A stretch of DNA of 64,000 nucleotides from Patescibacteria group bacterium. GTDB lineage: Bacteria; Patescibacteriota; Minisyncoccia; Phycocordibacterales; Phycocordibacteraceae. The notes under the pieces were generated by a model. The model was not told where the DNA came from, made no database searches, and saw nothing but the letters and a program-made list of their open reading frames with translations. Each line of letters starts with the position of its first letter. Position 1 is the first letter of the stretch. Shown here in pieces: positions 14,000-64,000 of the stretch. A program made the position numbers and the translations under genes. The stretch is from NCBI GenBank assembly GCA_030837225.1, contig JAUPKX010000007.1, forward strand, positions 158,657-222,656, read 5' to 3'.

Positions 14000-15220
14000 C
14001 TAGAGAGCGTCTATTGCCTCGTCTGCGAGGTCCTGTGCCTCTTCAGCGAAGTCTATAGCGTCTTCATAGTCTTCGTCATCAAGGGCGTCTTCTGCGTCAT
14101 TGAGTGCGTCCTCAGCTTCGTCCAGAAGATCTTCTGCCTCGTTTATTCTTGAGCTTGAGCTATTTGAGTCATCAATCTCATCCTGCGCGTCGTTGATCGC
14201 TTCCTGCGCATCATCGATAGCGTCTTCTGCATCAGATTCGTCGTCATCACTGTTGCTGCTTGAACCTATTTCGTCGAGTGCTTCGTCAATAAGATCTTCA
14301 GCTTCGTCTGCTAGATCCATGGCTTCCTCGTAGTCCTCATCATCGAGAGCGTCCTCTGCCTCGCTTATGAGGTCCTCTGCTTCGTCGAGGAGGTCTTCAG
14401 CATCGTCAGTGTCTTCGCCATCATCATTTGCAGCATCGACCTCGTCCCTTGCGTCGTCGAGCGCATCATTTGCCTCGTCGATAGCGTCTTCAGCGTCTCC
14501 TTCGTCGGCATCGTTGTTGTCATCGTTGTCATCATCATTTCCACTGCCGTCGATCTCATCGAGAGCATCATCTATAAGATCAAGGGCCTCGTCCGCGAGC
14601 TCGTTTGCATCGCTATAATCCTCGTCAACGAATGCGTAGAGCGCAAGCGTGACCTTCTTATCTGCGTTAACGAGGAGTGCCTTTGAGTCTCCAACCTCAT
14701 CGCCTTCGTCTTTGGCGTTTTCATAATCATCCATCGCGTCCTCATGTGCGTCACGCGCATCAAGAATTGCGCTCCGTGCCTCAGTCTGCGCGGTGGAGGT
14801 TGGCTTTGGTGTCGGAATAACAGGCGTAGTTAGTTGTGGAGCGGGTACCGTTGGCTTCGGGACCGCTGGCGACGTGAGTACGATGTACTTCGCGCGCGAG
14901 ACCGGACCGAAGGTTCCTGTTGCAGGACTAATCCCGTTTGCAGTCTGCCACTTCTGGACTGCCGCTACGGTCTTCGTCTGGTACTGGTTTGTCTCATATC
15001 CCTTTGAGCCGACACCTGATGTCGAAATCGTAAAACCATTTGCGTTCAGGTACTGCTGGAGGCAACGTACCGCCTCGCTCTCGACACCGAGTTCAAGATT
15101 GCTTGTAAAGGTACAGGTCGCAGCGCGCGCTTGTGCTGGAATCATGAGCGTACTTGCAACGAGCATCATGCCGAGCACGATAAATGCTGCAGCGCTCTTT
15201 TGGATAGTGGTGATATTCAT
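14000..15220 (-). CDS. secreted peptidoglycan-binding (PG_binding_1-like) protein with very acidic Asp/Glu repeat tail
   Basis: Signal peptide; domain LGVESEAVRCLQQYLNANGF...VAAVQKWQTANGISPATGTFGP; Pro-rich linker; about 200 aa of D/E repeats (EAEDALDDEDYEEAMDLADEAEDLIDEALDEI occurring twice). Confidence 0.65.
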   Translation of the reverse strand: MNITTIQKSAAAFIVLGMMLVASTLMIPAQARAATCTFTSNLELGVESEAVRCLQQYLNANGFTISTSGVGSKGYETNQYQTKTVAAVQKWQTANGISPATGTFGPVSRAKYIVLTSPAVPKPTVPAPQLTTPVIPTPKPTSTAQTEARSAILDARDAHEDAMDDYENAKDEGDEVGDSKALLVNADKKVTLALYAFVDEDYSDANELADEALDLIDDALDEIDGSGNDDDNDDNNDADEGDAEDAIDEANDALDDARDEVDAANDDGEDTDDAEDLLDEAEDLISEAEDALDDEDYEEAMDLADEAEDLIDEALDEIGSSSNSDDDESDAEDAIDDAQEAINDAQDEIDDSNSSSSRINEAEDLLDEAEDALNDAEDALDDEDYEDAIDFAEEAQDLADEAIDAL

Positions 15221-15905: not shown

Positions 15906-15979
15906 TGGTGCGGATAGGGAGAATCGAACTCCCGCTATATCATTGGCAACGATATGTTCTACCACTAAACTATATCCGC
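15906..15979 (-). tRNA. tRNA-Gly (anticodon GCC), CCA encoded
   Basis: GCGGATATAGTTTAGTGGTAGAACATATCGTTGCCAATGATATAGCGGGAGTTCGATTCTCCCTATCCGCACCA on minus strand; hairpin terminator (AAAGACAGCC-gatt-GGCTGTCTTT) downstream at about 15870-15900. Confidence 0.85.
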
Positions 15980-16666
15980 GCTGGGTTTTATACTCTCATA
16001 ATACGCGCTATTCATCAATTCCCCTGGCATCAGGGATATCCACGCTAGAACCTTAGCCTTGAAATAGGCACTTGATACAGTAATCAAACAGACACCGTGC
16101 GAGAGACGTCGTGTCTTGTGGCGACCATTGATTGTTGTTGTTTTGGTGAAATTCTCCTCAGGCAGACCAGTGGCGGCCACCCAGTATCTCCGACACTGAT
16201 CATCATTTAAGTCAGGATAGATGAGTATTTGTGCCCTTACCCTTTCCATAGGTATTCGGCAAACATGTAAGACAAAGAACACATAAAGCCTAATCATTTC
16301 AGAGTCTGTGTTCGTAAGCCTTACGACAGATTTGCCAAGCTTCGTGCCTTCGCCCCAATACAGCATTATGCCTGCTATGAATAGCGGGTTGTATTTTAGG
16401 ACCTCGAATTCTTCAGTAGCTACCTTTCTCGCTTCATCGTACGCAAGCTCAAGATTCTTTCCACGCGTTTTGTTCAAAGTCCTAATTCTTAGAGTGTGTT
16501 GGACTCGAGCCGCTTCGGAAAGTTTGTCTCGTATTTTTTCAGACCAATCCTCTTTCCCGAACCATCCAGACAGGGTACTTCGCGGTACTTCAAGAATCTC
16601 GATAATTTCTTTATAACTCTTACCCGAAAGCCTTAGGTGCCTCGCGGCTTCTTTATCAGTACGCAT
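15965..16666 (-). CDS. HTH + LAGLIDADG-like homing-endonuclease-family protein, tRNA-adjacent
   Basis: N-terminal HTH (GKSYKEIIEILEVPRSTLSGWF), motif LFIAGIMLYWGEGTK resembling LAGLIDADG block; segment VVRLTNTDSEMIRLY alignable to the paralog at 63465; last 15 nt overlap tRNA-Gly 5' end; lower GC. Confidence 0.5.
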   Translation of the reverse strand: MRTDKEAARHLRLSGKSYKEIIEILEVPRSTLSGWFGKEDWSEKIRDKLSEAARVQHTLRIRTLNKTRGKNLELAYDEARKVATEEFEVLKYNPLFIAGIMLYWGEGTKLGKSVVRLTNTDSEMIRLYVFFVLHVCRIPMERVRAQILIYPDLNDDQCRRYWVAATGLPEENFTKTTTINGRHKTRRLSHGVCLITVSSAYFKAKVLAWISLMPGELMNSAYYESIKPSADIV

Positions 16667-18053: not shown

Positions 18054-19517
18054 ATGAAGTTCCCTGTTCCCCTTGAAGTTACACGTGTAACAACTGCACT
18101 CCAGGACGCTGGATACGAGGCCTACCTTGTCGGTGGCTGCGTCCGGGACCTCCTTTTAGACCGTACCCCTAAGGACTGGGATGTAACCACGAACGCAAAG
18201 CCCGAGCAGATCCAGGCAGTCTTCCCTGAATCCTTCTACGAGAACGACTTCGGAACCGTAGGAGTGAAGACCGGGAGCGAGGACCAGACGCTCGCAATTA
18301 TTGAGGTAACCCCCTACCGCACCGAAACTGGGTACTCCGACAAGCGTCGCCCCGACGCTGTATCGTTTGGGGATAACTTAGAAGAGGATCTCGCACGTCG
18401 CGACTTCACCATTAACGCCATTGCCCTTGATCCTTCTAAAGGACAGTTGATAGACCCTTATCAAGGACAAAAGGACATTGAGGCCCGTGTCTTAAGGACA
18501 GTTGGTGTACCTGCTGACCGGTTTGAGGAGGACGCTCTGCGTCTTATGCGTGCTGTGCGACTCGTAGCAGAGCTCGAGTTCGCACTCGACACTGATACTG
18601 CTGCCGCTATTAAGGAGAAAGGTTCGAACTTGGCGCACATTTCACGTGAAAGGATCAGGGACGAGTTTGTTCGCATCCTGAACTCAAACCAGCCTATGAT
18701 GGCGCTGGTATTGGCTCAGCAACTTGAGATACTTAGCTATATCGCACCTGACCTCTCCCGAGGTGTGGGTATCGACCAGAATCAGGCCCATAGCTACGAC
18801 GTTTTTGGGCACCTTATGCGTGCTCTCCAGCATGCTGCAGATAAGGGCTGGGGGCCAGATATACGCCTTGCAGCAGTATTCCATGACGTATCTAAGCCAG
18901 AAACTAGGCGCTGGTCTGACGAGAAGAATGACTGGACCTTCCATGGGCACGAAGTGGTTGGTTCACGTGTAACCCGAAAGGCCCTTGAAGACCTTAAGTT
19001 TTCACGTGAAACTATCGAAAGAGTGAGCAAATTGGTTCGTTGGCACATGTTCTTCTCAGATCCTGACCAGATTACCCTTTCGGCCGTTCGCCGTATGATT
19101 AGGAACGTTGGGGAGGAAAATATCTATGATCTCCTCAATCTCCGTATTTGTGACCGTATTGGAACAGGGAGGCCGAAAGAACAGCCATTCCGCTTCCGCA
19201 GATATAAGGCCATGGTTGAGGAGGCCCTTCGCGATCCGATATCCGTAGGCATGCTTAAGACTGACGGTTCACGGATAATGGAGAAGTTCCACGTGCAACC
19301 GGGTCCAAAGATAGGTTTTGCCCTCCACGCGCTCCTTGAGGAGGTTCTTGAGGACCCAAAGAGGAATACTGAGGAATACCTGGACACCCGGACTGTAGAG
19401 CTTCTGGCGCTGCCTGAGGCAGATCTTAAGGCGCTAGGGGAGTCAGGCAAGAAGAGGAGGGAAGAGGAGGAGGAACGGGAAATCCAGGAAATACTTGAAA
19501 AGCACCACGTTGGGTAG
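18054..19517 (+). CDS. cca: CCA-adding tRNA nucleotidyltransferase with HD domain
   Basis: Pol-beta NTase head (GGCVRDLLLDRTPKDWDVTT), HD motif (VFHDVSKPE), C-terminal charged tail. Confidence 0.9.
   Translation: MKFPVPLEVTRVTTALQDAGYEAYLVGGCVRDLLLDRTPKDWDVTTNAKPEQIQAVFPESFYENDFGTVGVKTGSEDQTLAIIEVTPYRTETGYSDKRRPDAVSFGDNLEEDLARRDFTINAIALDPSKGQLIDPYQGQKDIEARVLRTVGVPADRFEEDALRLMRAVRLVAELEFALDTDTAAAIKEKGSNLAHISRERIRDEFVRILNSNQPMMALVLAQQLEILSYIAPDLSRGVGIDQNQAHSYDVFGHLMRALQHAADKGWGPDIRLAAVFHDVSKPETRRWSDEKNDWTFHGHEVVGSRVTRKALEDLKFSRETIERVSKLVRWHMFFSDPDQITLSAVRRMIRNVGEENIYDLLNLRICDRIGTGRPKEQPFRFRRYKAMVEEALRDPISVGMLKTDGSRIMEKFHVQPGPKIGFALHALLEEVLEDPKRNTEEYLDTRTVELLALPEADLKALGESGKKRREEEEEREIQEILEKHHVG
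18998..19013. promoter_or_regulatory. parS-like site GTTTTCACGTGAAACT (13/16 to TGTTTCACGTGAAACA), inside cca coding sequence
   Basis: Palindromic CACGTG core flanked by TTT/AAA; weaker copies also at 18638-18653 and 18961-18976. Confidence 0.5.
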
Positions 19518-20003: not shown

Positions 20004-20798
20004 TTAGAGCGTAATGGACACAGGGCAGTGGTCAGAACCGTATATATCAGCGTGTATCTCAGCGCCCTTAACTTTTGCTGAGAATTTCTTTGAGGCGAAT
20101 ATGTAATCGATTCGCCAGCCTACATTGCGATCACGCGCCATCCGAAACGGGCTCCACCAGGAGTAGTGGCCGTTGCCTTCGGTGAACATTCGGAACGTAT
20201 CGATGAATCCTGCTTCCTGGATCTGATCAATACCTGCTCGCTCTTCCTTGGTATATCCGTGCCCGCCCTCGTTTGCCTTAGGGTTTGCGAGATCGTCTGG
20301 CGTATGTGCGACGTTCAAATCCCCGCAGAAAATAACAGGTTTCTCCTCTTCGAGACGCTTCATATAGGTTAGGAAAGCAGGGTCCCACTTTTCGTGGCGA
20401 AGACTGAGACGGGATAGGTCTTCCTTGGAGTTCGGAGTGTAGACCGACACAACCCAGAACTGGCCCATATCTGCAGCGATAATACGGCCCTCCTCGTTCG
20501 GGTCTCCGTACTCGTCGTCAGAAAGGCCGTATTCCTTGGCTATATCTTCGGGCATACCAAAAAGCACATCCTCGGGAATCTGCTTGGTGAATATGGCAGT
20601 TCCGCTGTAGCCCTTTCGATTCTTTGCTGAATGCCAGTATTCCTCATATCCCATGAGATCAACAGGGGATTGGTGCTGCTCAGCTTTGGTTTCCTGGAGA
20701 CAGATGATGTCTGGCTTTAATTGCTTTATAAACGGCTCAAACAGGCCCTTCTTGTGAACGGCTCGGATGCCATTTACGTTCCAAGAAACGATTCTCAT
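20004..20798 (-). CDS. xth: exodeoxyribonuclease III (AP endonuclease, EEP family)
   Basis: MRIVSWNVNGIRA...CLQETK...GDLNVAH...SDHCPV motifs. Confidence 0.9.
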   Translation of the reverse strand: MRIVSWNVNGIRAVHKKGLFEPFIKQLKPDIICLQETKAEQHQSPVDLMGYEEYWHSAKNRKGYSGTAIFTKQIPEDVLFGMPEDIAKEYGLSDDEYGDPNEEGRIIAADMGQFWVVSVYTPNSKEDLSRLSLRHEKWDPAFLTYMKRLEEEKPVIFCGDLNVAHTPDDLANPKANEGGHGYTKEERAGIDQIQEAGFIDTFRMFTEGNGHYSWWSPFRMARDRNVGWRIDYIFASKKFSAKVKGAEIHADIYGSDHCPVSITL

Positions 20799-20846
20799 GC
20801 GGGTATTGTATACCGTTAGAGTTCGATCCCTACTCTGCCAGCTACT

Positions 20847-21076
20847 GATATAAAAAGATAACGCCCAGGAACGAAGTTCCTGGGCGGCACCGTCCTGATT
20901 CGGATTTCACCAGTACCATCATAGGGATTCCTACCCTAGGCCTTTTAGTGTCAGAACACCTGCTCTTGCTGGATTAGGTGCGTCCAGCTCACCCTGTATT
21001 CCTTCCCATGGCCGGGACTACCATATCGGGAAGACCCCACTGTTTCACCGCCGCTCCGTGTGGACGAGTTAGTCGG
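20847..21076 (-). ncRNA. candidate small RNA (about 225 nt) bounded by a TTGACA promoter and a strong intrinsic terminator, identity unknown
   Basis: Minus strand: TTGACA (plus 21106-21111) with weak -10 TACTGT about 16 nt on; 11-bp stem CGCCCAGGAAC-uucg-GUUCCUGGGCG plus U-tract (plus 20847-20886); no ORF over 12 codons; xth has its own TATACA box after the terminator. Confidence 0.3.
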
Positions 21077-21126
21077 CCTGAGTACAGTAGCATATAGTGT
21101 AATTCTGTCAACCCCTATTTAAGTAA

Positions 21127-21151
21127 GTTCCAACATCGTCCCAGACTGCCA
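21127..21151 (+). repeat. 25-bp motif GTTCCAACATCGTCCCAGACTGCCA (copy a)
   Basis: Identical to copy at 21513-21537; related copies at 50413-50437 and 63257-63281. Confidence 0.8.
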
Positions 21152-21178
21152 GCAATATTTCCATGCTAGATTCATGAT

Positions 21179-21508
21179 ATGGATATTCCCCTGCAATCTA
21201 TACTTCTAATAGTACTAATTGTCGCAGTGCCGCTACTGCTCTCCGGAGCTCTTATATACGGCCATATAAAAGAGGGAAGAATAATGGGTGCCGCCCATTT
21301 CCCATTCCTTCAATCATGGACCAAGTCATTTTGGTATTCGACTGGGATGCCGAAGTATGTGAGTAGAAAACACGAGCCCTTAGAGTTTTGGTTCGGATTC
21401 ATCCTCCGAATGATCCCGCTTATAGGGATGTTGCTGCTACTAATGCTGATGGGCGTTAGTGCAGTACTCGGAGTGACCTTCTACGAACTTATAGATTTGC
21501 TTTTTTAA
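21179..21508 (+). CDS. small membrane protein (109 aa), flanked by 25-bp direct repeats
   Basis: Two to three TM helices (LLIVLIVAVPLLLSGALIYG; IPLIGMLLLLMLMGVSAVLGV). Confidence 0.5.
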   Translation: MDIPLQSILLIVLIVAVPLLLSGALIYGHIKEGRIMGAAHFPFLQSWTKSFWYSTGMPKYVSRKHEPLEFWFGFILRMIPLIGMLLLLMLMGVSAVLGVTFYELIDLLF

Positions 21509-21512
21509 AAAG

Positions 21513-21537
21513 GTTCCAACATCGTCCCAGACTGCCA
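21513..21537 (+). repeat. 25-bp motif GTTCCAACATCGTCCCAGACTGCCA (copy b)
   Basis: Lies in the 30-bp gap between converging stop codons of the small membrane gene and the recombinase gene. Confidence 0.8.
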
Positions 21538-21538
21538 A

Positions 21539-22447
21539 CTATCCTCGCTTCGAATGGAACTTCTTATGCACCTCTCGTAGATGCGAGTCTGTAACGTGAG
21601 TGTAGATCTGCGTCGTATTGATAGATGCGTGGCCAAGGAGCGCCTGAACGGAGCGAATGTCCGCACCATTTGAGAGGAGATCGGTGGCAAACGAGTGTCG
21701 CATAACGTGCGGAGTCACTTTCTTCGTGATGCCGGCCTTCGTGGCATAGGTCTTAATGAGAAGCTCTATGGAGCGGGGAGTAAGGCGGGTAGGGATTCTC
21801 TTCTTGGTCTCAGACTTTCTGGCTGTACTAACGAACAATGCTGGCTCCATATCCGTACGAGCCTTTAGATAGGCTCTCGTAGCGGCCTTGGCAGCGTCTG
21901 AGAGGAATACGACACGCACCTTGTCGCCCTTTCCGCGGATAGGGAAGTCATCACGGGAAAGATCGAGGTCTGAATCAAGCGAACATAGTTCTGAAACACG
22001 AAGTCCCGTAGAGAAGAGCATCTCAAGAATCGCCTTGTCGCGAAGCGCTTTCTCGCTCTCGCCATCCGTTGCTTTGAGAAGGCGGTCGAGCTCGAGCGGG
22101 GAAATAAGGTCCAAGTGACGCTCCGGAACCTTCGCAAGTTCAATCTTCTCGGGAGAAAGCGAGGGAATGTCACGCTTCCGGAGGAACTTGAGGTACGCAC
22201 GGAGCGCGATGAGGTAGTAATTCTGGGTCCGGCGCTTCATCGAGTCCTTATTCGTGCCCGGCTGGCGATTAAGCCAAAGCCTAAACTCACGCACCTTCTC
22301 CTCGGTTATAGCTCCCGTATCCTTAATCTGAGCGTATTCAAAGAATCGAGAGAGGTAATGGTCATAGTTTTCTATGGTCTTTACCGCTCTACCTCGCTCT
22401 ATCTCGAGATACTCAAGGAATTGACGCTTCATCTGTACCGCATCCAT
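21539..22447 (-). CDS. tyrosine site-specific recombinase, XerC/XerD-like
   Basis: N-terminal SAM-like domain (FLEYLEIERGRAVKTIENYDHYLSRF), catalytic HVMRHSFAT and LLGHASINTTQIYTHV (R-H-R-H-Y); track start 22486 is a TTG; ATG at 22447 preferred. Confidence 0.85.
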   Translation of the reverse strand: MDAVQMKRQFLEYLEIERGRAVKTIENYDHYLSRFFEYAQIKDTGAITEEKVREFRLWLNRQPGTNKDSMKRRTQNYYLIALRAYLKFLRKRDIPSLSPEKIELAKVPERHLDLISPLELDRLLKATDGESEKALRDKAILEMLFSTGLRVSELCSLDSDLDLSRDDFPIRGKGDKVRVVFLSDAAKAATRAYLKARTDMEPALFVSTARKSETKKRIPTRLTPRSIELLIKTYATKAGITKKVTPHVMRHSFATDLLSNGADIRSVQALLGHASINTTQIYTHVTDSHLREVHKKFHSKRG

Positions 22448-22521
22448 ACGAAAAGAGTAGCACGCAGGTTCGCACAATATTCTCAAGGTCTCCTTAACGT
22501 AATACGCTATACTTTCTCTAT

Positions 22522-50379: not shown

Positions 50380-50412
50380 GAAAGTTTAGATTGCTTCCAA
50401 TTTATCATGCTG

Positions 50413-50437
50413 GTGCCAACATCGTCGCAGACTGCCT
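50413..50437 (+). repeat. 25-bp motif variant GTGCCAACATCGTCGCAGACTGCCT (copy c)
   Basis: 22/25 identical to copies a/b; 56 nt upstream of 50494 gene. Confidence 0.7.
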
Positions 50438-50493
50438 AAGGTGGATATGTTGATATTTCATTCTGTAATCTAGAAGACTTATATACTCTAACT

Positions 50494-50856
50494 ATGAATA
50501 CATCACCATCAGAGACAGGTAAGCGGCCCGTAATCATCAGCATAATATGTGTAGTCGGATTCCTGGGCGGCATCCTCTCCCTCGCAGGAATTATAATTCC
50601 TGCTTCCCGAGCAATGCTTGTAGAAAGCTACGGAATGTCATTTGTGATTCTAACTGCCGTGCTAACCATCCTGACGTTTGCGAGTCTCATCGGATTCTGG
50701 AAGATGAAGAAATGGGGACTCTACACATATATCGTGGCCACTGTTCTCGGAATGGTCGGAGGCCTGTACCTAGGATTACCATTCAACGTTCTTAGTTACA
50801 TAGTCCCCACAGCGATAGTTGTTACTGGTCTCTTTTATTTCAAGCGTTTCAGGTAG
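50494..50856 (+). CDS. small four-TM membrane protein, hypothetical
   Basis: Hydrophobic helices throughout. Confidence 0.5.
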   Translation: MNTSPSETGKRPVIISIICVVGFLGGILSLAGIIIPASRAMLVESYGMSFVILTAVLTILTFASLIGFWKMKKWGLYTYIVATVLGMVGGLYLGLPFNVLSYIVPTAIVVTGLFYFKRFR

Positions 50857-62646: not shown

Positions 62647-62693
62647 GTTAGACTCCCACCCGCCCGGCAATATTTTGAGGCTATAATAGCCTC

Positions 62694-63254
62694 ATGGAAT
62701 ACCGAGAGATTGAAGTTAGATTTCTTAACATAGATAAAGAAGCTTTGGTCCAGAAGCTAGAGAAGGTGGGTGCTGAGGACCTAGAAGAAAGTCTTCTCGA
62801 TGAACGAATCATTTATGATGAAGCATTTACGTGGCGCGATGGAATCCACAAGATACTTCGTCTACGCACCGTGGATGGAAAAACTCATCTAACATACAAG
62901 CACCGAACAGAAATAACTGCGACAGGCACTGAGGAGATTGAGTTTGAGGTTGGGAATATAGACGCTGCAGAGGCCCTACTTCAAAGACTTGGTTATGTTG
63001 CTTTCAGGCACCAACAGAAACTTCGCCATACGTTCCGTCTTGGAGAGGTTCTCGTTGAAATTGATACCTGGCCAAGAGTCCCTGCATACGTAGAACTCGA
63101 AGGTCCTAGCGAAGAAGCGCTAAAGGAGACAGCAAAAGCACTCGAGCTCGACTGGAATACAGTGGAGATGAGGAGTCCCAGAACAGTTATTGAGGAGGTA
63201 TATAACATTCCAGTAGGCCAGATGCGCTGGTTTACGTTTGATAGGTTTGAATAA
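62694..63254 (+). CDS. CYTH-domain protein (triphosphate tunnel metalloenzyme)
   Basis: EIEVRFL (ExExK-type) N-terminal motif and beta-barrel-consistent pattern. Confidence 0.75.
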   Translation: MEYREIEVRFLNIDKEALVQKLEKVGAEDLEESLLDERIIYDEAFTWRDGIHKILRLRTVDGKTHLTYKHRTEITATGTEEIEFEVGNIDAAEALLQRLGYVAFRHQQKLRHTFRLGEVLVEIDTWPRVPAYVELEGPSEEALKETAKALELDWNTVEMRSPRTVIEEVYNIPVGQMRWFTFDRFE

Positions 63255-63256
63255 AG

Positions 63257-63281
63257 GTTCCAACATCGTCCCAGACATCCA
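63257..63281 (+). repeat. 25-bp motif GTTCCAACATCGTCCCAGACATCCA (copy e)
   Basis: First 20 nt identical to copies a/b; 45 nt upstream of tRNA-Lys. Confidence 0.75.
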
Positions 63282-63325
63282 GCAGATAGAAATCGGAACC
63301 TGCATCTGCTACAGTAGTAAGGTAT

Positions 63326-63397
63326 GCGCCTGTAGCTCAGCGGTAGAGCAACGGACTTTTAATCCGCAGGTCGATGGTTCGATCCCATCCGGGCGCA
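63326..63397 (+). tRNA. tRNA-Lys (anticodon TTT), no CCA encoded
   Basis: GCGCCTGTAGCTCAGCGGTAGAGCAACGGACTTTTAATCCGCAGGTCGATGGTTCGATCCCATCCGGGCGCA. Confidence 0.85.
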
Positions 63398-63464
63398 CAT
63401 GGCACCTTCGTTCAAAGAACAATGTATCTCACTGCGCAAACAAGACCACTCAATCGTGGAAATC

Positions 63465-64000
63465 ATGCGTATAACAGGAAGACCCAAAACAACGATTTAC
63501 GCACACATTCGCAACCTGCCTCTGAGTGAGAAGCGTCTCCGGTCCTATAGAAATGCATCAGGACAACATATACGTCAGTTCGCCGTTTCAAGGAAAGGGA
63601 AAAGCGAGAAGAAGTTTACTCCATTTAACGAGTGGACCCTTGAGACTGTACTTCTTGTTGCACACCTAACCTTCGACGGTAGTTTGGGACAAAGAATTGT
63701 CGCATATAGCAATCGTAGTGAGGCGCTCATCAATCGCGTAGAGTCCCTCATGAGCACAATCTACGCATATTTGCCAAAGAGATCCTTCGACTCTCACTCA
63801 GGAGTTTTGCGGACGAGTTATTACAATGTTTCGCTTGCGTTGTACCTAAAGAGTAAGTCAAGGGAGTTGCTCGCGGAGATTGAGAATTATGATCTCGAAC
63901 TAAAGAAAGAGTTCCTCAGGGCTTTCTTTGACGACGAAGGATGTATGGACTTAAAGCTAAAAACGAACAAGCGGAGAATACGTGGGTATCAAAAGGACGT
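63465..64000 (+). CDS. HTH + LAGLIDADG homing-endonuclease-family protein (partial, runs off window end), tRNA-adjacent
   Basis: Two LAGLIDADG-like blocks LLVAHLTFDGSLG and LRAFFDDEGCMD; N-terminal HTH-like GRPKTTIYAHIRNL; paralog of 15965-16666. Confidence 0.55.
   Translation, partial: MRITGRPKTTIYAHIRNLPLSEKRLRSYRNASGQHIRQFAVSRKGKSEKKFTPFNEWTLETVLLVAHLTFDGSLGQRIVAYSNRSEALINRVESLMSTIYAYLPKRSFDSHSGVLRTSYYNVSLALYLKSKSRELLAEIENYDLELKKEFLRAFFDDEGCMDLKLKTNKRRIRGYQKD

Follow-up and report, generated by a model that had tools for sequence, protein, structure and literature searches.

Free-standing homing endonucleases are known from phage T4 as SegF, SegG and, in the T4 tRNA gene cluster, SegB, which act by intron-less homing; these Seg enzymes are GIY-YIG proteins encoded in phage genomes. 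LAGLIDADG endonucleases of the candidate phyla radiation (CPR), such as I-ShaI, are found in 16S/23S rRNA genes, for the most part inside group I introns, and most of them have one domain and a length of about 180–210 aa (PMC11270868). Patescibacteria also have endonucleases in tRNA introns, namely HNH enzymes in tRNA-Asn (PMC13011429). Here we analyse a stretch of 64,000 nt (the window; positions 158,657 to 222,656 of contig JAUPKX010000007.1) from a Patescibacteria bacterium with a tiny genome, at the 3' edge of which a LAGLIDADG gene follows a tRNA-Lys(UUU) gene. We consider it probable, at roughly 0.65, that this is a homing endonuclease gene with present or recent mobility, inserted exactly at the 3' end of tRNA-Lys(UUU). 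This reading is based on the presence or absence of the gene at an exact site, a conserved RNA gene as target, catalytic residues kept under purifying selection and partly discordant histories of the gene and its surroundings.

The locus resembles the Seg type in that a free-standing nuclease gene adjoins a conserved gene that is presumably its target, that the linked allele differs from sensitive alleles, that the gene is sporadic among close relatives, and that a flanking marker, here the tRNA-Lys allele, appears to be co-converted. Unlike the Seg genes, it encodes a LAGLIDADG enzyme, resides in a cellular chromosome and has a start codon fused to a tRNA 3' end. With the CPR rRNA-gene enzymes (I-ShaI) it shares the phylum, the superfamily, insertion at a conserved RNA gene and a patchy distribution; unlike them, it stands outside the mature tRNA, without an intron, and its product has two domains. 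The text of PMC11270868 contains neither 'tRNA' nor 'free-standing', so no tRNA-linked family is described there. The locus also differs from the HNH enzymes of tRNA-Asn introns in that a LAGLIDADG gene follows tRNA-Lys.

The tRNA-Lys(UUU) gene, which an earlier note on this DNA had pointed out, was confirmed at 63326-63397 on the + strand (ARAGORN; Rfam 71.7 bits). CCA is not encoded; the discriminator A63397 is followed by C63398, and the ATG of the endonuclease gene stands at 63399, one base after the discriminator. The window holds the first 200 codons (63399-64000, + strand). That the gene runs beyond the window, as the note had stated, was borne out by the public contig L001, which is identical to the last 3432 nt of the window (0 mismatches) and gives the full gene of 277 aa. 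It ends at window-equivalent 64232 and there overlaps with the stop codon of an LTD-domain gene running towards it. The note had placed the gene start 67 nt after the tRNA, and this has to be corrected: every homologue conserves residues 1-22 (MxSFKEQCIxLRK...), with a nearly invariant Met1. The wrong start codon (Met23, 63465) hid the direct tRNA/ATG junction, which is the most unusual feature of the locus. Gene callers, too, chose Met23 as start or missed the junction, and automatic annotation labels the family 'LAGLIDADG family homing endonuclease' or 'hypothetical'.

An N-terminus resembling a helix-turn-helix (HTH) and two LAGLIDADG blocks had likewise been noted, and both profile search and predicted structure of the full-length protein agreed with an endonuclease fold. 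The HTH is encoded at 63411-63509, LAGLIDADG motif 1 (LLVAHLTFDGSLG, with catalytic D93) at 63651-63689 and motif 2 (LRAFFDDEGCMD, with catalytic E180) at 63915-63950, all on the + strand. Against Pfam LAGLIDADG_3 (PF14528; cut-off 22.5 bits) the full-length protein (P0001) scored 38.5 bits and three homologues 29.6–37.1 bits; the window-truncated open reading frame (ORF) by itself reached 17.4 bits, under the cut-off. The AlphaFold model of the 277-aa protein, made with 25 homologues as input, has a predicted local distance difference test (pLDDT) score of 90. It combines a three-helix HTH (residues 5-37) and a long basic helix with a pseudo-two-fold symmetric pair of alpha-beta-beta-alpha-beta-beta-alpha domains, whose secondary-structure elements come in the order expected for this fold. 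Its best Foldseek PDB matches were I-DmoI, intein endonuclease domains (PI-PfuI, TliVMA) and WhiA, and I-SceI and I-AniI were also matched. D93 (FDG) is kept in 64 of 65 sequences and E180 (DDEG), which aligns with the 'VAEGD' motif of I-DmoI, in all 65. Judged by profile and model, the gene is a free-standing two-motif LAGLIDADG endonuclease gene whose product has a predicted N-terminal HTH followed by a predicted two-domain nuclease of the I-DmoI type.

Shared with I-DmoI and other monomeric two-motif LAGLIDADG enzymes (PF14528) are the pseudo-symmetric pair of domains, the single acidic residue ending each LAGLIDADG helix and conserved Q/K-type residues, here in the RGYQKD block. The resemblance to I-DmoI comprises structural matches, a weak profile match and marginal sequence similarity (E = 0.04). 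Unlike this type, the protein is neither intron- nor intein-encoded and carries an extra N-terminal three-helix HTH, the long basic helix and a conserved C-terminal tail. WhiA (DUF199), a transcription factor built from a LAGLIDADG scaffold and an HTH, shows the same pairing of fold and HTH (structural match to 3hyi, E = 5.6e-7). WhiA has lost the catalytic acids, has a C-terminal HTH and is universally and vertically conserved; unlike it, the protein described here keeps the acids, has its HTH at the N-terminus and is patchily distributed, and on these three counts it does not fit a WhiA-like regulator. PADLOC and PHROG gave no match to the protein, and an assignment to a defence system or phage family was dropped on this result; NCBIfam gave no functional family match.

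A protein search returned more than 370 homologues, almost all of 276-277 aa, in Patescibacteria of the Paceibacteria/Parcubacteria group. We retrieved 80 genome loci, all chosen as gene carriers, of which 76 include the endonuclease 5' end. In 71/76 loci tRNA-Lys(UUU) lies directly upstream on the same strand, and the junction '...GCG[CG]A-C-ATG' is exact to the base in 48/70 loci and within 3 nt in about 59/70. Other tRNAs of the endonuclease loci almost never abut an ORF (1/29 tRNA-Arg). Distant family members (40–45% identity) also follow tRNA-Lys, but between the two lies a TACAAT box of their own or a terminator; the most distant relatives, L075-L077 (32–36% identity) and two archaeal loci, are not linked to tRNA-Lys. 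The usual neighbourhood consists of tsaE, polA, a holA-like gene, tRNA-Lys with the endonuclease gene, the LTD protein gene, a Mur ligase gene, ruvA and rpsT, and the tRNA-Lys/endonuclease unit occurs in either orientation between these flanks (about 41 vs 22 loci in the comparison of L002-L074). The two orientations are interspersed on neighbour-joining trees of the endonuclease and the flank proteins (trees without support values), which suggests repeated in-place inversion or re-insertion of the unit.

Further observations concern the 5' side of tRNA-Lys. Partial duplications of the tRNA-Lys 5' end are found about 80 nt upstream of the real tRNA in four loci; in L007, L010 and L018 about 70 nt of conserved sequence come after a GCGCCCGTA... 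fragment, and L078 has the variant GCGCTCGTA.... At L022 3890-3920 a unit of roughly 42 nt (promoter plus first 12 nt of the tRNA) is tandemly repeated. All these duplications, that of L022 included, could be scars of recombination at this tRNA. In L004-L017, L024, L027 and L070, a conserved leader of about 55 nt (...GGGAGTCGTCG...GAGAAATGATAGTGTGCGNTNAGAAAATA...) separates a GAACC/TGGTAnTAT promoter from tRNA-Lys; this leader (-60 to -1 before tRNA-Lys) may act as an additional promoter or yield a small processed RNA.

Gene presence and divergence at the tRNA-Lys locus

Because the loci described above had all been selected for carrying the endonuclease, we sampled relatives through the holA-like neighbour. 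Nine relatives were picked via their holA-like protein (69–94% identity to that of the window), blind to the endonuclease. All nine keep tsaE-polA-holA on one side, LTD-Mur ligase-ruvA-rpsT on the other and tRNA-Lys(UUU) between them, and in 0/9 was a LAGLIDADG gene found at the syntenic locus. The slot is either empty or taken up by an ABC transporter, Ham1 plus peptidase M15, an NTPase plus response regulator, a deformylase or a hypothetical gene. These results support the view that genes turn over at the tRNA-Lys 3' flank. Carriers are found at the same host distance as non-carriers: in the carrier L002, PolA is 94% and the holA-like protein 93% identical to their window counterparts. Two endonuclease-free tRNA genes encode an intact ...GCGCACCA end, and compared with these the endonuclease ORF starts right after C74. 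The candidate target is the gene-free tRNA-Lys 3' end, ...GGGCGCACCA; an endonuclease-free locus of the L204 type reads ...GGTCCGAGTCCAGGTGGGCGCACCA plus downstream sequence.

Among the genes of the neighbourhood, that of the endonuclease evolves fastest at short range (window vs L002, 75% identity vs 85–94% for the neighbours). Divergence at four-fold degenerate sites was above that of the pooled flanks for the endonuclease gene in 4/6 pairs (p < 0.02), most clearly in L016-L024 (0.72 vs 0.42, p = 1e-5). It was 0.84 vs 0.63 in L006-L027 and 0.75 vs 0.56 in L031-L051. In the last pair the tRNA-Lys genes are identical and the endonucleases only 58% identical. The linked tRNA alleles are themselves variable. 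At matched host distance, tRNA-Lys identity was 0.91 in endonuclease-free pairs vs 0.77 in carrier pairs, and the tRNA-Lys allele of the window, identical in L002, is only 74–78% identical to those of endonuclease-free close relatives. In the proposed cycle, the enzyme would cut endonuclease-free tRNA-Lys alleles at or near their 3' end, and repair from a carrier genome would copy the endonuclease gene, often with the adjacent tRNA allele, which would amount to intron-less homing.

At first, synteny, dN/dS (the ratio of non-synonymous to synonymous substitution rates) and long-range conservation made the gene look like a domesticated, vertically inherited one. Such a gene would encode a Paceibacteria host factor, the endonuclease-free relatives would be simple losses, and tRNA-Lys would be used for its expression; the protein could be a WhiA-like regulator, an HO-like programmed nuclease or a trans-acting maturase of group I introns, and ORF-less group I introns are indeed numerous in Patescibacteria (PMC13011429). 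Purifying selection on the endonuclease is strong (dN/dS about 0.05; 0.04–0.07 in pairs with unsaturated dS), about 40% of its residues are invariant or nearly so, its length is uniform at 276-277 aa, and the housekeeping neighbourhood is conserved. At long range its identity plateaus near 55%, and the mean pairwise identity of 0.54–0.56 is on a par with that of PolA (0.58) and Mur ligase (0.56). Nevertheless, we demoted domestication because none of the nine relatives in the unbiased sample carries the gene and because of the comparisons at short range and at four-fold sites, in which the endonuclease outpaces all its neighbours and has, in several pairs, a higher synonymous-site divergence than the flanks. 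The unusual variability of the linked tRNA alleles, the retention of the catalytic residues, which sets the protein apart from WhiA and the bI3 maturase, and the missing PADLOC or NCBIfam functional family match also speak against domestication, which we now regard as unlikely.

Several points weigh against a mobile homing gene. Endonuclease distances correlate with flank distances (Pearson 0.58–0.75), and the window-L002 pair looks vertically inherited, with a four-fold divergence of 0.56 vs 0.53; therefore, descent has been vertical for much of the history, and the gene may benefit the host. About 95% of the ~76 copies are intact, clear disruptions being confined to L070 (a frameshift) and L078 (an internal deletion), which is a difficulty because a classical homing cycle predicts more decayed copies. 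We found no nearly identical filled/empty pair that defines both insertion boundaries, and absence in the nine relatives was scored at this locus only, not genome-wide. The orientation flips are unexplained by simple homology-directed homing, and flanking inverted repeats were rejected as their cause, none being consistent across 8 loci. As regards the expression of the gene, treated below, distant family members have a -10 box of their own, or a terminator, between tRNA and ORF.

Expression of the endonuclease gene

There is no room for a promoter or a Shine-Dalgarno sequence before the ATG at 63399, as the preceding bases form the GC-rich acceptor stem of the tRNA. Since nothing fits between the two, the endonuclease ORF would have to be transcribed with the tRNA. 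A putative tRNA-Lys promoter, recognised by its sequence, lies at 63287-63315 on the + strand and consists of a -35-like TAGAAA (63287-63292), a spacer of 17 nt with a GAACC box inside (63296-63300) and a -10 box TACAGT (63310-63315), 10 nt after which the tRNA begins. A GAACC-N8-9-TAnnnT arrangement is found 5' of tRNA-Lys in most related loci. In the window only 7/45 long ORFs have a Shine-Dalgarno-like sequence, and TAnnnT boxes peak 6 nt before start codons (22 at offsets 5–12 vs 3.9 expected); leaderless mRNAs therefore appear to be usual in this genome.

The tRNAs of the window that are directly followed by an ORF (Lys and Arg-TCG) do not encode CCA, and two tRNA-Gly genes followed by terminators do. 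A gene for a CCA-adding-type nucleotidyltransferase is present at 18054-19517. In Bacillus subtilis, RNase Z processes CCA-less tRNA precursors by an endonucleolytic cut after the discriminator, a rule with which the pattern seen here agrees. The endonuclease gene is probably co-transcribed with tRNA-Lys and translated without a leader: having no promoter or ribosome-binding site of its own, it would be transcribed from the tRNA-Lys promoter, an RNase Z cut after the discriminator would free an mRNA starting C-AUG, this would be translated as a leaderless message, and the CCA-adding enzyme would complete the tRNA-Lys 3' end. The arrangement recalls mitochondrial tRNA punctuation, a source of leaderless mRNAs, in which an ORF likewise follows 0–3 nt after a tRNA without a Shine-Dalgarno sequence or promoter and the tRNA 3' end likewise needs a CCA-adding enzyme. 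Unlike mitochondrial punctuation, it concerns a bacterial chromosome, a single tRNA-ORF pair instead of a scheme for the whole genome, and a processing step that we infer.

Alternatively, the gene may be expressed independently, from its own promoter or by translation from Met23 (63465), with the adjacency of the tRNA reflecting tight gene packing. Genes are indeed packed very tightly throughout the window, and in L056, L057, L061, L066 and L071 a TACAAT box belonging to the ORF, or a terminator with a promoter, stands between tRNA and ORF. However, a TAnnnT box cannot sit in the acceptor stem before the ATG, the junction is base-exact in 48 of the 70 species and residues 1-22 are conserved as protein. 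The first codons show no excess synonymous conservation, so a hidden nucleic-acid signal there was ruled out. We therefore consider independent expression quite improbable.

The endonuclease is not the only gene found in this position. In three endonuclease-free relatives other ORFs start 3–11 nt after the same tRNA-Lys, encoding a peptidase M15 (L203 5741-5818; L207 5738-5817) or a peptide deformylase (L209 5172-5257), and therefore the tRNA-Lys 3' flank seems to be a general, reusable expression slot.

A second tRNA of the window also closely precedes an ORF. The tRNA-Arg(TCG) gene (17993-17921, - strand), without encoded CCA, is followed by 'C-ATC' and then by the ATG (17916) of a 393-aa gene of the diaminopimelate/ornithine decarboxylase type (Pfam Orn_Arg_deC_N); tRNA and ORF together span 17993-16735 on the - strand.

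The 29-bp repeat and other features of the window

The earlier note had drawn attention to a copy of a 25-bp motif upstream of tRNA-Lys. This copy exists and belongs to a repeat with a full form of about 29 nt, rGGTTCCAACATCGTCCCAGACnGCCAGCa. Four copies were found in the window, all on the + strand (at 21128, 21514, 50416 and 63258), vs 0–0.4 expected by chance. In their full form, copies 1 (21126-21154) and 2 (21512-21540) are the left and right brackets of a 109-aa ORF (21179-21508), the diverged copy 3 (GGTGCCAACATCGTCGCAGACTGCCTAAG, 50412-50440) lies upstream of a 120-aa ORF (50494-50856), and the fourth copy (GGTTCCAACATCGTCCCAGACATCCAGCA, 63256-63284) lies 42 nt 5' of tRNA-Lys. A metagenome scan yielded about 95 distinct true copies on 72 contigs, always on one strand within any contig. 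Copies are intergenic, in many cases begin immediately after a stop codon and vary in their distance to downstream genes; frequently they enclose one gene as direct repeats.

One such gene is present next to tRNA-Lys. A CYTH-domain gene (62694-63254, + strand; Pfam CYTH, E = 1.8e-9), with a TATAAT box at 62682-62687, 6 nt 5' of its ATG, precedes the copy at 63256-63284, which forms the right boundary of the cassette. Directly 3' of the stop codon of the holA-like gene, a degenerate att-like copy (GTTAGACTCCCACCCGCCCGGCA, 62647-62669, + strand) is the probable left boundary; the assignment is not certain because the similarity is only about 60–65%. Compared with L002, the CYTH gene is an insertion between repeat copies, an accessory cassette peculiar to this lineage; it is absent from L002 and other loci, and L002 has in its place a single element resembling the tRNA-Gln 3' end, GTTCGATCCCTAGTCTGCCACC. 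The CYTH cassette thus landed between the holA-like gene and the tRNA-Lys promoter, and 63256-63284 marks its end.

The association of the repeat is with tRNA-Gln. Among 20 tRNA genes in 120 repeat-bearing loci, 15 are tRNA-Gln, always upstream of and co-oriented with the repeat, and unrelated genes stand between the two. A second repeat type, GGTTCGATCCCTAGTCTGCCAGCA, is a true tRNA-Gln 3' end. Orphan fragments of it form series together with tRNA-Gln and the 29-bp repeat in L082, L085, L092 and L096; in the window one such orphan, GTTCGATCCCTACTCTGCCAGC (20821-20842, + strand), lies about 300 nt upstream of copy 1. The 29-bp form itself shares only GGTTC... and ...CTGCCAGCA with the tRNA-Gln 3' end, at a score not clearly above that for other tRNAs, so that its likeness to the tRNA-Gln 3' end is only suggestive.

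The repeat (≤4 mismatches) was absent from 605 kb around 79 other endonuclease loci, where about 38 copies would be expected at the density of the window, and from the four endonuclease-free relatives that were scanned (L202-L205). We read it as a lineage-specific, att-like element that brackets single accessory genes and is unrelated to the endonuclease. As in tRNA-targeted integrative elements, direct repeats are co-oriented with and downstream of a tRNA (here tRNA-Gln) with variable cargo between them, and orphan fragments of the tRNA 3' end occur in the repeat series. Unlike in such elements, the cargo is usually one small gene without an integrase, the copies are scattered far from tRNA-Gln, and the 29-bp form resembles a tRNA 3' end at its two ends only, which is not significant alone.

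That repeat, tRNA-Lys and endonuclease move together as a composite element, with the repeat as its end or recognition site, is highly improbable, since the asymmetry of the repeat, its length of about 29 bp (about that of a LAGLIDADG target), its position just upstream of the tRNA and the insertion of the CYTH gene between two copies are outweighed by its absence around the other endonuclease loci and in the endonuclease-free relatives and by its many sites without tRNA-Lys or a LAGLIDADG gene. The composite hot-spot suggested in the earlier note thus stands as regards a real endonuclease and gene turnover at the tRNA-Lys 3' flank, and the repeat is not part of it.

Other roles for the repeat were also rejected. 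It was dismissed as the target of the endonuclease or a part of the tRNA-Lys promoter on account of its absence from the other endonuclease loci and its variable distance to downstream genes. Rfam gave only tRNAs for the whole window and nothing for 20700-21250, which argues against a known RNA. An inverted AGGTTCC/GGAACCT pair described around the motif exists (63255-63261 and 63295-63301), but at only 7 nt it is not a meaningful inverted repeat. As a hairpin or element end it was dismissed: the left arm is a part of the repeat, and the right one coincides with the GAACC box of the tRNA-Lys promoter, which is conserved in relatives without the repeat.

A gene for a Xer-type tyrosine recombinase (21539-22486, - strand; NCBIfam XerA equivalog, 243 bits vs a cut-off of 220) has its stop codon abutting repeat copy 2. 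No Xer homologue was found by tblastn in the 120 repeat-bearing loci, a search confined to this recombinase family. A Xer/dif-like site was rejected on this result and on the lack of dyad symmetry in the repeat.

Between the orphan tRNA-Gln fragment and copy 1, about 280 nt (20843-21125) are non-coding and contain hairpins, for example CCCAGGAACGAAGTTCCTGGG. No Rfam match was obtained for this segment even at E ≤ 1; a decayed cassette and an uncharacterised RNA are both possible identities.

Paralogy of the endonuclease with the product of 15965-16666 (- strand), also proposed in the earlier note, did not survive comparison: the BLASTP E-value is 13, only the N-terminal HTH aligns, and hhalign (probability 74%) covers residues 1-66 only, that is, the HTH and a helix. 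The model of this 233-aa protein (pLDDT 88.7) gave no LAGLIDADG-like structural match. The protein is an HTH protein of a different Paceibacteria family (226-233 aa, 53–62% identity), as conserved as that of the endonuclease and without a Pfam domain; for the fold of the C-terminal domain the PDB offered no clear counterpart. The final codons of the gene (..SADIV*) run into the 5' end of tRNA-Gly(GCC) (15906-15979), with a 15-nt overlap in the window, and many homologues end in the same tRNA-derived residues.

A 406-aa protein is encoded at 14000-15220 (- strand). Its N-terminal region is signal/peptidoglycan-binding-like, and long imperfect repeats rich in D/E come after it. These highly acidic repeats appear as the DNA repeat families D2, D3 and D5.

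Novelty and meaning of the tRNA/start-codon junction

Free-standing LAGLIDADG homing endonuclease genes and the use of tRNA genes as integration targets are already known. What appears to be new is a nuclease start codon fused to a tRNA 3' end in dozens of species, with the fusion as the apparent means of expression. A literature search, which was incomplete, returned no LAGLIDADG gene fused to a tRNA 3' end and no tRNA-punctuated leaderless mRNA in bacteria.

Beyond the mobile homing gene itself, we propose, only tentatively, a wider reading. A homing gene may have colonised the 3' end of an essential tRNA, may borrow the promoter and the processing of that tRNA to make a leaderless mRNA, and may drive fast turnover of tRNA-Lys(UUU), with the flank serving as an 'expression slot' for unrelated genes such as those of peptidase M15 and deformylase. 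The turnover of tRNA-Lys would then proceed through an arms race between target and nuclease or through repeated co-conversion, and the arrangement would be a bacterial counterpart of mitochondrial tRNA punctuation.

For annotation, the junction matters in that the start of such genes is called at Met23 or the junction is missed by gene callers. If the reading is true, the locus would provide a natural bacterial case of an mRNA made by tRNA processing and translated without a leader, and a new, probably very specific nuclease with its target in a universally conserved gene. It would also explain the variable tRNA-Lys alleles in part of the Paceibacteria.

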